A stretch of 64,000 nt of DNA from the NCBI GenBank assembly GCA_943371375.1, contig CALRUM020000008.1, forward strand, positions 9,164 through 73,163, in the 5' to 3' direction. The DNA is from Asaia bogorensis. GTDB lineage: Bacteria > Pseudomonadota > Gammaproteobacteria > Burkholderiales > Burkholderiaceae_C. Each line of letters begins with the position of its first letter. Position 1 is the first letter of the stretch. The translations under genes were made by a program, and so were the position numbers. Shown in pieces: positions 9,387 to 49,737 of this stretch. The notes under the pieces were generated by a model that saw only the letters and a list, made by a program, of their open reading frames with translations, was not told where the DNA came from and searched no databases.

Positions 9387-9445
9387 AGTAAAATTGGATC
9401 GCAGCCCTTATCTAACGGGCGCCAGTAGCTATCAATAACATAGCA
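9387..9445 (-). repeat. REP-like repeat family A, intergenic copy (17-nt palindromic head + ~40-nt body)
   Basis: Head GCTATCAATAACATAGC at 9429-9445; body aligns with the copies at 14511, 21745, 37659, 44469 and 49681. Confidence 0.8.
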
Positions 9446-9468
9446 AGCGGTGGCCCGGTGGGCCAGCA

Positions 9469-14510: not shown

Positions 14511-14568
14511 GCTATCGATACGATAGCTGCTGACGCCCGCCCAGCAAGGGCTAGAGCCCGATTTTGAT
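14511..14568 (+). repeat. REP-like repeat family A, copy overlapping the 3' end of the metallophosphoesterase gene
   Basis: Head GCTATCGATACGATAGC at 14511-14527, body TGCTGACGCCCGCCCAGCAAGGGCTAGAGCCCGATTTTGAT. Confidence 0.8.
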
Positions 14569-21744: not shown

Positions 21745-21803
21745 GCTCCTGAAATAATAGCTGCTGGTGCCTGCTGTGTCTGGGCTGATGGCCGATTTGG
21801 CTT
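21745..21803 (+). repeat. REP-like repeat family A, copy between modA and modB
   Basis: Head GCTCCTGAAATAATAGC at 21745-21761, body TGCTGGTGCCTGCTGTGTCTGGGCTGATGGCCGATTTGGCTT. Confidence 0.75.
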
Positions 21804-22680: not shown

Positions 22681-23835
22681 ATGCTGCAGGTGTCCCTCCA
22701 GAGTGCTGGCCCGATCCGGCTGAACGCCAGCTTTGATTGCCAGCCCGGCGAGTTGCTGTGCCTGGTGGGTCCGTCGGGCAGTGGCAAGACCAGTGTGCTG
22801 CGGGCGCTGGCCGGGTTGCTCAAAAGTCCGGGTCTGCGCGGCCGGGTCAGCATCAGCGGCGCGGGCGGCGATGCGCTCTGGTTTGACAGCGACCAGGGCC
22901 ACTGGCTGCCACCGCAGCGCCGCCGTGTGGGCCTGGTGTTCCAGAACTACGCCTTGTTTCCGCACCTGACTGCTATCGAAAACGTAGCTATTGCCGCAGA
23001 CCCCGAAAGGGCTGAAGGCGCACTGGATGCCTTGTTTGAACGCATGGGGCTGACCGGCCTGCAACAGCGCCGGCCGGCGCAGCTCTCGGGCGGCCAGCAG
23101 CAACGAGTGGCCCTGGCCCGCGCGCTGGCCCGCGAGCCGCAGGTGCTGCTGCTGGACGAGCCGTTTTCCGCGGTGGATGCGCCCACGCGCCAGACCCTGT
23201 ACCACGAGCTGGCGGCGCTGCGCCAGCGGGTCGCCATCCCGATGGTGCTGGTGACACATGACCTGAACGAGGCACGGCGGCTGGCGGATCGTGTCGTGAT
23301 CCTGGACGCCGGCGAGTCGCTGCAGGTGGGCACGCCGGCGCGTGTATTTGCCAGCCCGCGCAATGCGCGTGTGGCCGAGCTGGTGGGTATCCAGAACCAT
23401 TTCAGCGGCCAGTTTTTCAAAAATCAGCCACAGGACCCGGCCGGTTACGGTCGGCTGGCCTGGCACGATGTGGCGGCTGCGCAGCAGGCTGGTGCAGGCG
23501 CGCCCGTTTGGCTGCAGGTGCCCGACAAAGGGCGCCTGGACGATGGCGTCGCCGTCTCCTGGGTACTGAGCGGTGAGCTGGTGGACGTCGCCGTGGCTGC
23601 GGGCGCGGGCGCGGCGGGCAACAGCCTGCGCTGCACCCTCTCGGAGGTGCTGCCGCTGGGCGAAATCAGTCTGTGCACGCTGGTACCGCTGGCCTTGCCC
23701 GGTCAGCGCCTGACGCTGAACCTGTCCACCGCTGCGCTGCGCCAGCTGGGTGCGGTGGCCGGTGCGGCGCTGGATCTGCAGATACCGCCGCAGGCGGTGC
23801 ATGTCATGCCGGTGCGGCAAAACCAGGCCGGCTAG
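22681..23835 (+). CDS. modC: Molybdate ABC transporter ATP-binding protein
   Basis: GPSGSGKT Walker A, LSGGQQQR signature, LLLDEPF Walker B, VTHD; follows modAB. Confidence 0.9.
   Translation: MLQVSLQSAGPIRLNASFDCQPGELLCLVGPSGSGKTSVLRALAGLLKSPGLRGRVSISGAGGDALWFDSDQGHWLPPQRRRVGLVFQNYALFPHLTAIENVAIAADPERAEGALDALFERMGLTGLQQRRPAQLSGGQQQRVALARALAREPQVLLLDEPFSAVDAPTRQTLYHELAALRQRVAIPMVLVTHDLNEARRLADRVVILDAGESLQVGTPARVFASPRNARVAELVGIQNHFSGQFFKNQPQDPAGYGRLAWHDVAAAQQAGAGAPVWLQVPDKGRLDDGVAVSWVLSGELVDVAVAAGAGAAGNSLRCTLSEVLPLGEISLCTLVPLALPGQRLTLNLSTAALRQLGAVAGAALDLQIPPQAVHVMPVRQNQAG
22972..23020 (+). repeat. Family A repeat-derived segment embedded in frame in modC
   Basis: Head GCTATCGAAAACGTAGC; 20 of the next 31 nt match the 14528 body without gaps; atypical A/T-ending codons. 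Confidence 0.6.
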
Positions 23836-33523: not shown

Positions 33524-33944
33524 GCCGGGGGTTGCCCGGCGGCAAGTAACTTTCTTTTGCGTCGCCAAAAGAAAGTCACCAAAGAAAAGGCGACCCGATG
33601 GTCTGGGTCCCTCCGCTGCGCTACGGGCAACCTGCGGTGCTCGCCGAAAACGGGGTCTCGCTCGAACTCGCTGCGCTCAGACAATCGCTCGCCCTGATCC
33701 GTTTTCGGCTGCGCTCTTCGGCCCAGCCCGACGGGTGGGAGACCGAACGCGGGTGCGGGGAGCCTTGACGCGCTCCGCGCGTCAAGGCGTATTTCAGTTG
33801 GCCGCCATGTTTGCACGCGGGAGCAGCGCACGTGGCCAAATGAGGTCCCCCTCCATCGCCCAGCGGGGGCGAGGGAGGGGTTAGGGGTGGGAGTGGGGAG
33901 TTAGACCCTACTGCCCCGAGCAGACCTCAGGCGCAGCGTGATGC
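33524..33944. mobile_element. Composite non-coding repeat family B, copy 1 (non-autonomous element or structured RNA)
   Basis: Collinear with 39320-39749 over ~420 bp with long identical blocks and compensatory changes in stems; no transposase ORF. Confidence 0.75.
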
Positions 33945-37643: not shown

Positions 37644-37658
37644 GATGGCGGGGACAAT

Positions 37659-37714
37659 GCTATGAAATAGTGAGCTGACTACGCAGATGAGACAAGGGTT
37701 GCAAGCGATATTTG
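37659..37714 (+). repeat. REP-like repeat family A, copy upstream of recQ
   Basis: Head GCTATGAAATAGTGAGC, body TGACTACGCAGATGAGACAAGGGTTGCAAGCGATATTTG. Confidence 0.65.
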
Positions 37715-39319: not shown

Positions 39320-39749
39320 GCCGGGTCTCGCCCCGGCGGGCGACTCACTTTCTCTTGCGTCGCCAAGAGAAAGTAAGCAAAGAGAAGGCGACCCGATGGT
39401 CAGGGTCCTTCCGCTTTGCTCCAGGCAACCTGCGGTGCTCGCCGTTAACGGGGGCTAGCTCGAACTCGCCTTCGGCTCAGACAATCGCTCGCCCTGATCC
39501 GTTTTCGGCTGCGCTCCTCGGCCCAGCCCGACGGGTGGGGGAAACAAATGCGGGTTCGGATGCGGGGAGACGATGACGCGGAGAGCGCGTCATCGTCGGA
39601 CTACGCGGCGGTCATGTTTGCACGCGGGGGCAGCACACGCGGCCAAATGAGGTCCCCCTCCATCGCCCAGCGGGGCGAGGGAGGGGTTAGGGGTGGGAGT
39701 GGGGAGTTAGTCCTACTGTCTAACGCAAGCCCGAGACGCAGCGTGATGC
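39320..39749. mobile_element. Composite non-coding repeat family B, copy 2
   Basis: Same orientation and module order as 33524-33944; also lies between convergent genes. Confidence 0.75.
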
Positions 39750-39759
39750 CGGCAACACC

Positions 39760-40659
39760 TCAGCTCAGCACCACACTGCTCAAGCGCCGCCGGTAAGTCG
39801 CCACCACCGGATCATCCGGCGGAATCTGGCCGTCGGCGACCTTGACCCGGGGCGGCTCGATGATTTCCAGGATGGACACAAAGGTCTTGCGTGCCAGTTC
39901 CCCGTTCCAGGATTTGTCGCGCATCAGGATTTCCAGCAACTCGTCCATCGCCGCCACCCACTGCTGCTGGCTCATGTGCAGTTGTGCCAGCGCGTAACGT
40001 GTGTCGAAGTCCCGCTTGTTGCCTGCAAGTTTTGCATCGAATCCGGCTTTGGCCAGCGCCGCATCTGCGTGAGCAGCTCCTGATTCAATAGCGTTGAGCC
40101 AGTGTTGCAGGGCCTCCAGCTTGCGCACCACCGGCGCTTTGCTGGCTACGGGCGCAAAAGCGGTTTTGGCGTGTTCGACCTGGCCGTGCTGCAGCAGCAG
40201 GCGGATGTAATCGAAGCGTGCGTTGTCGTTGGCCGGGTCGGTGGCAACGGCTGCCTGCAGTTTTTCCAGCACCGCTGCCGGGCTGCTGTCTTCCGGCTCC
40301 GCCATTTCTTCTTCGGCCGGTGGCAACTCTTCGGCCGGCGGCAGGTGTTTGTCGAGAAACTCCTTGACCTTGCCTTCGGGCAGCGCGCCCTGAAAACCGT
40401 CCACCGGCTGGCCGTTGACCATCAGTATGCAGGTCGGAATGCTGCGAATGCCAAAGGCGGCGCCCAGTTGCTGCTCCTGGTCGGAGTCGATCTTGACCAG
40501 CTTGAAGCGTCCGCCGTAGGCGATTTCCACTTTCTCCAGGATGGGCCCCAGAGATTTGCAGGGTCCGCACCAGGGCGCCCAGAAATCAATCAGCACGGGG
40601 GTGGTCATGGAAGCCGCAATGACTTCCTCCTCAAAATTGGCAATGGTGGCGTCGATCAT
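39760..40659 (-). CDS. ybbN: Thioredoxin/TPR co-chaperone YbbN (CnoX)
   Basis: DFWAPWCGPCK, FGIRSIP, C-terminal TPR ELLEILMRDKSWN...YRRRLSS. Confidence 0.9.
   Translation of the reverse strand: MIDATIANFEEEVIAASMTTPVLIDFWAPWCGPCKSLGPILEKVEIAYGGRFKLVKIDSDQEQQLGAAFGIRSIPTCILMVNGQPVDGFQGALPEGKVKEFLDKHLPPAEELPPAEEEMAEPEDSSPAAVLEKLQAAVATDPANDNARFDYIRLLLQHGQVEHAKTAFAPVASKAPVVRKLEALQHWLNAIESGAAHADAALAKAGFDAKLAGNKRDFDTRYALAQLHMSQQQWVAAMDELLEILMRDKSWNGELARKTFVSILEIIEPPRVKVADGQIPPDDPVVATYRRRLSSVVLS
40036..40092 (-). repeat. Family A repeat-derived segment embedded in frame in ybbN
   Basis: Minus strand reads GCTATTGAATCAGGAGC-TGCTCACGCAGATGCGGCGCTGGCCAAAGCCGGATTCGAT, encoding AIESGAAHADAALAKAGFD. Confidence 0.65.
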
Positions 40660-40772: not shown

Positions 40773-41279
40773 ATGACAACGCAAGATCAAAATGCGCCCC
40801 TCATCGGCGTGGTGATGGGCTCCAGCAGCGACTGGAGCACCATGCAGCATGCGGTGCAGATCCTCCAGCAGTTCGGCGTGGCGCATGAGGCGCGCGTGGT
40901 TTCGGCGCACCGCATGCCGGACGAGCTGTTTGCCTATGCCGAGCAGGCCGCCGGGCGCGGTCTCCAGGCCATCATTGCCGGCGCTGGCGGCGCCGCCCAT
41001 CTGCCGGGCATGCTGGCGGCCAAAACCGCCGTGCCGATACTCGGCGTTCCGGTGGCCAGCAACCATTTGCAGGGTGTCGATTCGCTGCACAGTATTGTGC
41101 AGATGCCCAAGGGTGTGCCGGTCGCGACTTTTGCCATTGGCAACGCCGGCGCTGCCAATGCCGCCCTGTTTGCTGTGGCCATGCTGGCCACCCACGACAA
41201 AACGCTGGCCGACAAGCTGCAGGCCTTCCGCGCCGAACAGACCGCCGCTGCGCGCGCCATGACACTTCCTCCCGCATGA
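40773..41279 (+). CDS. purE: N5-CAIR mutase
   Basis: [37 protein letters not shown]. Confidence 0.97.
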
Positions 41280-42496
41280 GCCTTCCGATCTTTCCGGGCG
41301 CTTTGGATGCCTTGGGCCAGCCAGCCACCCTGGGTGTGATGGGCGGCGGGCAGCTGGGCCGCATGTTTGTGCATGCTGCGCAGCGCCTCGGTTATTTCAC
41401 GGCGGTGCTCGACCCCGATGCAGACAGCCCGGCGGGCCGCGTCAGCCATCACCACATCCAGGCCGGTTACAGCGATGCGGCTGGCCTGGCGCAACTGGCA
41501 TCGCTGTGCGCCGCCATCACCACCGAATTTGAAAACGTGCCGGCTGAGGCCCTGCAGGCGCTGGCCGCCAGCCGGCCGGTGGCGCCTGGCGCAGCGGCGG
41601 TGGCGATTGCGCAGGATCGCATCGAGGAAAAAGCCCACTTCAGCGCCAGCGCCGGTGTCGCAGGTGTCAGCTGCGCGCCTTATGCGGTCATCAGGACTGC
41701 GCAACAGCTGCGCGCCGTGCCGGCCGATCTGCTGCCCGGCATCCTGAAAACCGCACGTTTGGGTTACGACGGCAAGGGCCAGCTGCGTGTGGGCAACATG
41801 GCCGAACTGGCGGTGGCCTGGGCGGATTTGAAGGGTGTGCCCTGCGTGCTGGAAAAGCGGCTGCCGCTGAAGGCCGAGTGTTCGGTCATTGTGGCGCGCG
41901 GCTGGGACGGTGCGGTGGTGGGTTTTGCGCCGCAGTACAACCTGCATGTGGACGGCATTCTGGCCGTCACTGCCGCCCACGAAGGAAATATACCGCCAGC
42001 CCTTGCACAGCGGGCGCGAGCAGCTACTGAATCCATAGCAAGCCACATCGGCTATGTCGGTGTGTTGTGTGTCGAGTTTTTTGTCATCGACGACGGCAGT
42101 GCCGATGGCGCGCTGGTGGTCAACGAAATGGCGCCACGCCCCCACAACAGCGGCCACTACACGCTGGACGCCTGCGATGTCTCGCAGTTTGACCTGCAGG
42201 TGCACGCCATGGCGGGCTTGCCGCTGCCGCTGCCGCGCCAGCATTCACCGGCCATCATGCTCAATCTGCTGGGCGATGTGTGGCTCGATGCCGCAGGCCA
42301 GGCGCGCACGCCCGACTGGCAAGCCGTGCTGGCCCTGCCCGGCACACACCTGCATCTGTACGGCAAGCTCGAAGCCCGCCCCGGCCGCAAAATGGGCCAC
42401 CTGACCATCACCGGCGCCGATGTGGCGTCGGTGCAGGCGGTGGCGCGCCAGGCCGCTCGGGTTCTGCGGCTGCCGGGGCTGGACGCGCTGGGATGA
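41276..42496 (+). CDS. purK: N5-CAIR synthetase
   Basis: [46 protein letters not shown]. Confidence 0.96.
41986..42039 (-). repeat. Family A repeat-derived segment embedded in frame in purK (body first, head last on the coding strand)
   Basis: AAATATACCGCCAGCCCTTGCACAGCGGGCGCGAGCA-GCTACTGAATCCATAGC closely parallels the 9390-9445 copy. Confidence 0.7.
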
Positions 42497-44468: not shown

Positions 44469-44521
44469 GCTATTGTTTTGATAGCTGTTGATGCGGGTCC
44501 GGCAAGGGCAAGGTGATTTTT
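44469..44521 (+). repeat. REP-like repeat family A, copy between convergent genes
   Basis: Head GCTATTGTTTTGATAGC is the exact reverse complement of the head at 49721-49737. Confidence 0.8.
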
Positions 44522-49680: not shown

Positions 49681-49737
49681 ATCAAATCGGCCCCCAGACA
49701 ATATCCAGCAAGCATGAGCAGCTATCAAAACAATAGC
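49681..49737 (-). repeat. REP-like repeat family A, copy between recA and recX
   Basis: Head GCTATCAAAACAATAGC at 49721-49737 with body ATCAAATCGGCCCCCAGACAATATCCAGCAAGCATGAGCA. Confidence 0.8.

Follow-up and report, generated by a model that had tools for sequence, protein, structure and literature searches.

A dispersed repeat family read in frame within purK of Polaromonas at unchanged protein length

Described systems and the present family

Coding copies of USS in Pasteurellaceae and of DUS in Neisseriaceae form in place, use preferred frames and fall on tolerant residues (Findlay and Redfield 2009, PMC2817400). The palindromic elements of Rickettsia (RPEs) are, in the account given in PMC10969869, insertions of 100–150 bp that add 30–50 residues (Ogata et al. 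2000). In P. naphthalenivorans CJ2, a paired motif, ATAGCT(N)22CAAAAG, occurs in 125 copies, 81% of them intergenic near gene ends and 14% in genes; it was reported solely as an uncharacterised statistical motif, with nothing on frames, overlays or a link between purK and a family (PMC5217627). BRE, a repeat of 75–91 bp and 69% GC, occurs in Bordetella and in Comamonadaceae at a few dozen copies; Polaromonas JS666 has 29 (Hot et al. 2011, PMC3110155).

The family analyzed here comprises about 520 copies of ~57 nt in a 3.95-Mb Polaromonas genome (nhmmer, E < 0.01). One of them lies in frame inside purK, within the window, by which we mean the whole stretch of 64,000 nucleotides that was analyzed. 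As in USS and DUS, the copies are hundreds of dispersed singletons in both orientations that related genera share, many are located in genes in a few preferred frames, and they are missing from recently acquired DNA; the intragenic copies in purK, nif3, cnoX and modC are free of indels and occupy tolerant, poorly conserved residues. The differences from these signals lie in the unit, which has ~57 nt and three blocks against a 9–12-nt core, in the placement, since 86% of copies are intergenic and mostly within 60 nt past a stop codon, and in the fact that some copies are net sequence gains. To our knowledge, neither Polaromonas nor Rhodoferax is known to be competent or to show an uptake bias, and at 57 nt and ~55 bits the unit is far longer than any uptake or binding signal that we know of.

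With the RPEs, the family shares a dispersed repeat in frame in many unrelated housekeeping genes and a recurrent peptide compatible with the host fold. It differs from them in lineage, in its weak folding and in that the copies in purK, nif3, cnoX and modC add no residues. REP and REPIN-RAYT systems of enterobacteria and pseudomonads offer another likeness: there, too, short extragenic elements lie directly 3′ of genes, many copies have a palindromic head with GTAG in it, vertical inheritance persists for long, and some lineages have lost the entire family. Unlike REP and REPIN elements, the present copies are singletons and not inverted doublets, and they fold weakly. We know of no description of same-length coding overlays as a REP property. 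A RAYT-like gene with the Y1_Tnp domain (PF01797) is present in 33 of 34 genomes, all family-free ones included. The RAYT/REPIN reading was rejected, as the Y1 transposase does not track the family and no copies closely flank its gene.

Identity with BRE, which is also a dispersed beta-proteobacterial repeat with some copies wholly within coding sequence, was likewise rejected on its description, the present family having ~57 nt, ~48% GC and hundreds of copies. The CJ2 motif pair, on the other hand, probably represents this family or one of its dialects: it shows the ATAGCT head and the same 14% intragenic fraction, although its second box differs from the present consensus.

The family and its copy in purK

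The nhmmer search was seeded with 11 copies, purK not included, and converged at E < 0.01 over 3.95 Mb. The resulting consensus is approximately AAATCGGCCTCCAGCCCTTG-N8-GCGCAAGCAGCTAY-N7-RTAGCAA, and the unit is laid out in three conserved blocks as AAATCGGCCT-CCAGCCCTTG-(~8 variable)-GCGCAAGCAGCTAY-(7 A/T-rich)-RTAGCAA, with a GC content of ~48%. The consensus extends equally on either side, without a trace of purK flanks. Copies are singletons in both orientations, about one per 7.6 kb, and only four pairs are less than 400 nt apart; ~70% are located at most 60 nt downstream of a stop codon, 86% are intergenic and ~14% intragenic. An 84-kb island of 54% GC has no copies. Spacing is marginally even (CV 0.92 vs 0.99 for random placement). 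A replication-oriented signal of the KOPS or Chi kind was rejected, as just 55% of copies are co-oriented with GC skew, a weak replication-strand bias.

No near-identical pairs were found among the copies, and nearest-neighbour identity at the 20 variable positions is about that of column-shuffled controls; therefore, there is no sign of recent copy-paste bursts. The near-identical copies that recent transposition of a MITE would leave are absent. On folding, the recurrent stem is only the 4–5 bp of the head, and the mean MFE is −16.2 vs −14.0 kcal/mol for shuffles. No covarying pairs were detected by mutual information over 367 in-register copies. A structured RNA was thus rejected, given the absence of covariation and folds barely more stable than shuffles. 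Rfam returned no match at gathering score within the window, and a chance-level one (E 0.45) around an intergenic copy. One intergenic copy recurs at the orthologous position of three further Polaromonas species and is missing in one that is family-free; at the one orthologous site compared, no clean empty site was recovered for the intergenic copy, the flanks being too diverged.

The purK open reading frame codes for 406 residues, and its product, N5-carboxyaminoimidazole ribonucleotide synthase, matches solved N5-CAIR synthases at E 4e-126 in a PDB search. The initial annotation had placed a repeat in frame inside this gene, and the sequence is indeed found there, covering codons 237–256 (Table 1). 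It contains AGCAGCTAC-TGAATCC-ATAGC at 42020–42039, aligns ungapped to the family consensus and has the family signature, namely the head GCTAY-N7-RTAGC after AGCA and the body block CCAGCCCTT at fixed spacing. A typical family member lies no more than 60 nt past a stop codon, but this one is at a distance of 450 nt from the stop of purK. The intergenic copy that had been quoted as its parallel exists at 9390–9448, but the quotation carried one extra A (CGCAAGCCC against the actual CGCAGCCC). The burst of rare codons claimed for the segment is also real: expressed as shares of their own amino acid, in codon usage taken from long ORFs of the genome, CCA accounts for 4%, CTT for 2%, GCA for 7%, CGA for 1%, GCT for 5%, ACT for 3% and ATA for 8%.

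Table 1. Coordinates within the window of purK, of the parts of its embedded copy and of other copies of the family.
Feature	Position	Strand	Evidence
purK	41276..42496	+	ORF; PDB matches E 4e-126; AlphaFold2 pLDDT 92.5
Embedded family copy, purK codons 237–256, loop and helix 241–257	41984..42043	+	nhmmer 49 bits, PWM 55.6, GC3 0.34
Repeat body block CCAGCCCTTG in purK	41996..42005	+	family profile columns 7–15 conserved 62–99%
17-nt head palindrome GCTAC-N7-ATAGC, AGCA directly before	42023..42039	+	GCT and TAGC invariant in 520 copies; only consistently folding stem
Intergenic copy quoted in the initial annotation	9390..9448	+	nhmmer 35.4 bits
Intergenic copy just after a stop codon; site conserved in three other Polaromonas species	14511..14561	-	nhmmer 45.6 bits, alignment
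Family copy	21745..21795	-	nhmmer 27.8 bits, E 9e-6
Family copy in modC, antisense reading TAIENVAIAADPERAEG, same-length overlay	22971..23019	-	nhmmer 27.3 bits, E 1.3e-5
Family copy	37658..37706	-	nhmmer 24.3 bits, E 1.2e-4
Family copy in cnoX/ybbN (gene on - strand), same-length overlay	40045..40092	+	nhmmer 23.7 bits
Family copy	44469..44510	-	nhmmer 28.3 bits, E 6.6e-6
Family copy	49687..49737	+	nhmmer 24.0 bits, E 1.5e-4

Membership of the purK segment in the family does not depend on the segment itself. With purK excluded from the seed profile, the site scores 49 bits (E 1.2e-12), a significant similarity; under the converged profile, it scores 37.5 bits and ranks 188 among 520. On a matrix built without purK, it reaches 55.6, inside the interquartile range of the family (52–65), and the average of random windows of the genome is −98 (sd 19). 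By comparison, the single quoted intergenic copy matches much less well (38/58 ungapped identity) than the family does. Among many short, strong BLAST matches of the purK stretch in its own genome, several are better than the one to this copy, e.g., 30/32 and 33/37. When the peptide is held fixed and recoded by genome codon usage, the mean score is −6.4 (sd 9, maximum 35.9) and none of 200,000 recodings reaches the observed score; uniform synonymous choice gives none in 100,000, and the use of A/T-ending codons only gives eight in 100,000.

Same-length overlays, their distribution and their maintenance

The repeat had been proposed to replace an existing helix and not to add to it, and the alignments agree. 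No indel is observed in comparison with 27 orthologues (20 congeneric, the remaining seven belonging to other families in the order), and two solved PurK structures align gaplessly across the repeat segment. The sole length difference in the vicinity is a one-residue gap just upstream, relative to the seven other-family sequences. None of the ~100 orthologues examined has extra residues at the site, as an intermediate would. In the AlphaFold2 model of PurK (overall pLDDT 92.5, and >90 here), helix 241–257 is followed by strand 262–271 (VGVLCVEFF), which agrees with the helix that had been claimed just ahead of the conserved stretch. From the gapless alignments and the modelled helix, it follows that the repeat encodes a short loop plus the whole helix, with zero residues added. 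The copy can be called “domesticated” in the weak sense that a repeat-encoded peptide serves as a PurK helix, but not in the sense of a new function. Of the parallel drawn with Rickettsia RPEs, the in-frame reading stands, but the defining feature, a residue-adding insertion, fails since purK gains none.

In family-free outgroups (Undibacterium, Limnohabitans, Rhizobacter, Ramlibacter and others), the corresponding purK segments rank, in register, among the top 0.1–5% of genome windows, and ancestral Nif3 (GR.P..LV.G....[IV]AWC) likewise resembles the repeat translation. Thus, copies inside conserved domains sit where the older sequence was already similar. These comparisons indicate that the copy was written over a proto-site, a stretch of purK that was similar to the repeat, in the frame used, before the copy arose. 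The reason for such a pattern may lie in where copies can form, in where they are tolerated, or in both.

purK is not unique: about 74 of the 520 copies are in frame in genes, where a copy was called coding if the long open frame around it had a GC3 of more than 0.75 to either side (an ORF/GC3 heuristic). The sense frame, which is that of purK, reads NRPPALSGRAQAAIxSIAN and is used by 36 of ~74–76 coding copies; two antisense frames, AIxSIAAxAxxxRAxGQ and LLSKxELLAPxxKGLEA, are used by 19 and 12, respectively. Among the genes that carry them are purL (two copies), putA (three copies), hemD, waaC, asparaginase and imuB. The copy in nif3/ybgI (45 bits) leaves a protein equal in length to E. coli YbgI and to the Rhodoferax, Curvibacter and outgroup orthologues, and its segment keeps the repeat-like sequence in ~17 Polaromonas with the family and is eroded in five without it. 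cnoX, too, is free of indels, and its segment is repeat-like in family-bearing relatives and GC-rich in family-free ones. In modC, the orthologue from genome G021 is equally long and has ordinary GC-rich codons; orthologues of this gene were found in three relatives only, with no family-free genome among them.

In loosely constrained linkers, the outcome differs, and at least some copies are net sequence gains. PurL has a 57-nt copy where close relatives have ~24 nt, a net gain of 11 aa. The carboxyltransferase copy is a net gain of 7 aa against paralogues, a weakly grounded figure since the family-free genomes gave paralogues only, and the asparaginase copy is a gain of ~6 aa against a solved homologue. 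Given the net gains in PurL and the carboxyltransferase, some copying mechanism must exist.

Within the genus, about 17 of 23 purK orthologues carry repeat-like DNA (GGAAATATGCC.CCAGCCCTTGC....CGGGCGC..GCAGCTACTGAATC.ATAGCAA), and in the other six a nearly identical peptide is spelled in the usual GC-rich codons. Matches to AGCAGCTAN{8,10}TAGC, the core pattern, number 9–264 in family-bearing genomes and 0–4 in family-free ones; the reversed pattern, used as control, has 1–11 in the family-bearing genomes. Repeat-like nucleotides occur in the purK segment of 29 of the 30 family-bearing genomes and of 0 of the 23 family-free ones, counts that are not independent because loss events are few (~4–5). 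The family-free set takes in nested Polaromonas lineages and Hymenobacter. Orthologues from lineages without the family, which the initial annotation had named as a possible source of refutation, do not show the repeat nucleotide pattern. The exception on the other side is G018, a family-bearing genome whose purK and nif3 copies are eroded.

The same purK codons are repeat-like, and partly eroded, in family-bearing Rhodoferax bucti, Comamonadaceae OS-4, MsE-M22 and a Curvibacter MAG. Since these carry a copy at the same codons, the overlay predates Polaromonas and goes back at least as far as the ancestor that this genus shares with Rhodoferax and Curvibacter-like genera. The event, whose dating had been proposed, is therefore ancient and older than the genus, neither recent nor unique. 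In a purK tree calculated with the segment left out, the repeat-type genomes G014 and G003 come off at the base, with the non-repeat types G007, G001/G002/G010 and G018 nested, an arrangement of a single-gene tree that indicates one gain and at least three losses.

GC3 along purK dips at the repeat: no other window of the gene is as low as the segment in the 16 repeat-type orthologues (0.34 vs a gene median of 0.80), and the same codons have a GC3 of 0.78 in the non-repeat types. Third bases are kept among the repeat-type orthologues at codon 237 (GGA/TCA; A in 16/16), GCT250 (16/16), ATA254 (16/16), codon 252 (A in 15/16), ACT251 (13/16) and GCA255 (13/16), and codons beneath the variable loops of the family vary freely. 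The G/C-ending codons of the segment fall exactly at the G or C positions of the repeat. Overall third-position identity in the segment is average (0.61 vs a median of 0.60), which indicates that the constraint follows the core positions of the family profile and not the whole stretch.

Many species of Hymenobacter (Bacteroidota) have a Polaromonas-type purK, 74–80% identical to the Polaromonas protein and evidently acquired horizontally. Their purK retains the repeat-type peptide GNMPPALATRAR..SIA over decayed nucleotides (PWM −53 to +20), and the core-pattern count found no family copies in their genomes. Judging from these sequence comparisons, the peptide has been kept by selection on PurK, and the rare A/T-ending codons of the repeat have been retained, in the face of a GC3 of ~0.8, only in genomes that carry the family; after family loss, the codons of the segment have drifted to ordinary GC-rich synonyms.

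Explanations of the overlay

The reading that we consider probable is that the repeat was overprinted in place on a site already similar to it and is kept up by a trans-dependent process acting on the whole family. In its behaviour, the family seems to resemble DNA uptake sequences more closely than Rickettsia palindromic elements. We infer trans-dependent maintenance because coding and intergenic copies persist with the family and erode together without it. We hypothesize that the family acts as a signal, recognised as DNA or RNA, and that its copies are held in place by a putative trans-acting factor, either through purifying selection for the bound site or through a biased drive as for DNA uptake sequences. 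The purK copy would be one such site that by happenstance lies in a tolerant part of a core gene. As to origin, stepwise substitutions at the proto-site under bias may have produced the overlay, with a chance that we put only a little short of even; a one-step patch replacement templated by another copy is a possible route too, to which we give about one chance in three. On a more speculative level, this could be a long recognition signal of the Polaromonas–Rhodoferax clade, with a biased, factor-dependent process (drive like that of uptake sequences, homing or conversion) that both creates copies and keeps them in place and that overwrites codons of core enzymes (PurK, Nif3, CnoX and ModC) and with loss of the factor followed by erosion of the whole family, coding copies included; we put this forward tentatively. 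Points that we counted against the in-place overprint are the 57-nt length, the net-gain copies, the eroded G018, the average third-position identity, the single-gene-tree polarity and the small number of losses.

An unlikely alternative is an RPE-like history, in which a 57-nt in-frame insertion added ~19 residues to purK and the original helix was later lost in a deletion of equal size. The family can add sequence, as in PurL (net 11 aa) and the carboxyltransferase (net 7 aa), and its predominantly intergenic placement (86% of copies) is as with REP or MITE elements. However, four genes (purK, nif3, cnoX and modC) display exactly zero net change, no longer intermediate exists among the ~100 orthologues examined, and the ancestral peptide already resembled the repeat translation in register. 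Near-identical copies, doublets and a transposase that tracks the family are all missing.

Convergence, in which the rare A/T-ending codons would have been selected for a reason specific to purK, for instance to make translation pause ahead of the C-domain strand or to serve as a regulatory site within the gene, strikes us as very unlikely. It is true that the segment is located at a domain junction and that the peptide written with A/T-ending codons alone averages 25 on the family matrix; however, only 8 of 100,000 such recodings attain 55.6, and the G/C-ending codons of the segment are found precisely where the repeat has G or C. Moreover, the pattern is gone in exactly the family-free genomes, including Hymenobacter with the same peptide, and the same overlay is present in three unrelated genes (nif3, cnoX and modC).

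Still harder to credit is the possibility that the purK segment was the source from which the family spread, even though no copy seen is older or more widely shared than that in purK (29 of 30 family-bearing genomes) and the purK frame is the commonest coding frame (36/76). A native coding segment is expected to be GC-rich at third positions, as it is in the outgroups, and the A/T-rich signature of purK therefore requires information flow into the gene. The consensus is without purK flanks and there is no similarity beyond the 57-nt unit, and the frame bias is accounted for by the absence of stop codons. Finally, a chance likeness between a GC-rich, alanine-rich helix and a GC-rich repeat, for which speak only the GCN alanine codons that dominate both and a pairwise match of merely 38/58 to the one quoted copy, is practically inconceivable, as it was already refuted by an E of 1.2e-12 genome-wide with purK excluded, by 0 of 300,000 synonymous recodings (genome-usage and uniform) that attain the score and by background windows that average −98 (sd 19).

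If the in-place overprint under trans-dependent maintenance is true, a dispersed non-coding signal would dictate synonymous and some non-synonymous sites of essential genes over the very long term and against strong codon bias, and loss of the signal would leave a datable trace of erosion. The ~30 family-bearing and ~23 family-free genomes, with at least four independent losses and the Hymenobacter transfer, would then constitute a comparative system for finding the putative factor, and the same system could be used to gauge how far DNA-level signals shape protein sequence space. Overlays of this kind would also yield local clusters of rare codons and peaks of amino-acid divergence that might be mistaken for horizontal transfer, recombination or positive selection.

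What is new here is the antiquity of the purK overlay, its co-occurrence with the family, the ~74 in-frame copies with same-length overlays in nif3, cnoX and modC, and the occurrence of copies as dispersed singletons that show neither near-identical pairs nor a RAYT correlation. With regard to breadth, a survey of one genome per genus in the GTDB family detected the core pattern well above control in about 22 of 150 genera.

Coding copies of family A and inserts in the PurL linker

Family A, the dispersed repeat of which one copy lies in purK, also has coding copies in modC and cnoX/ybbN, and some genes hold several copies in differing frames, with two in purL and three in putA (see table). 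The PurL linker 5′ of the glutaminase domain contains a family-A copy in the genome under study, and other, unrelated in-frame inserts are found there in two relatives (loci L124, purL of genome G008, and L127, purL of genome G014). One of these two inserts is G-rich, is translated as PALSPEGRGSNPLALPLPLGEGRGEG, and is similar to a G-rich module present twice in the window. The window also holds two copies of a modular non-coding element of approximately 400 nt, whose blocks are 86–98% identical between the copies and which has no relation to family A.

Features and their locations
Feature	Location	Remark
modC family-A copy	window 22971-23019	antisense Ala-rich frame; same length as orthologues (overlay)
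cnoX/ybbN family-A copy	window 40045-40092	antisense Ala-rich frame; same length as orthologues (overlay)
purL family-A copies	contig C1:134372-134422 and C1:136726-136777
putA family-A copies	contig C13:75018-76976
Modular non-coding element	window 33541-33944 and 39339-39749
G-rich module	window 33866-33907 and 39672-39713
Y1 transposase gene	contig C5:104320-104607	outside the window
Longest family-A-free stretch	contig C6:72872-157166	outside the window
Hymenobacter/Solirubrum purK	loci L036, L043, L045, L046, L049, L054, L055, L058, L062, L064-L071, L074

purK in Bacteroidota and an exceptional relative

Approximately 20 genomes of Hymenobacter and Solirubrum (Bacteroidota) carry a purK whose protein is 74–80% identical to that of Polaromonas, in some cases on megabase contigs. 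The gene was apparently acquired long ago by horizontal transfer, the donor being Polaromonas-like. In these genes the repeat-derived peptide is present and the nucleotides of the repeat are eroded.

G018 (locus L039) is the one genome that departs from the association of coding copies with possession of the family: it is family-bearing, with 114 pattern matches, and yet its purK and nif3 copies are both eroded.

Y1 transposase gene and the longest family-A-free stretch

A single gene for a RAYT-like Y1 transposase (PF01797, ≈240 aa) is found in the genome under study. Such a transposase also occurs in 32 of the 33 relatives searched, family A being present or not, and it may belong to a different repeat family.

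The longest stretch free of family A spans 84 kb and is probably a recently acquired island; its GC content is 54%, versus 63% for the genome.
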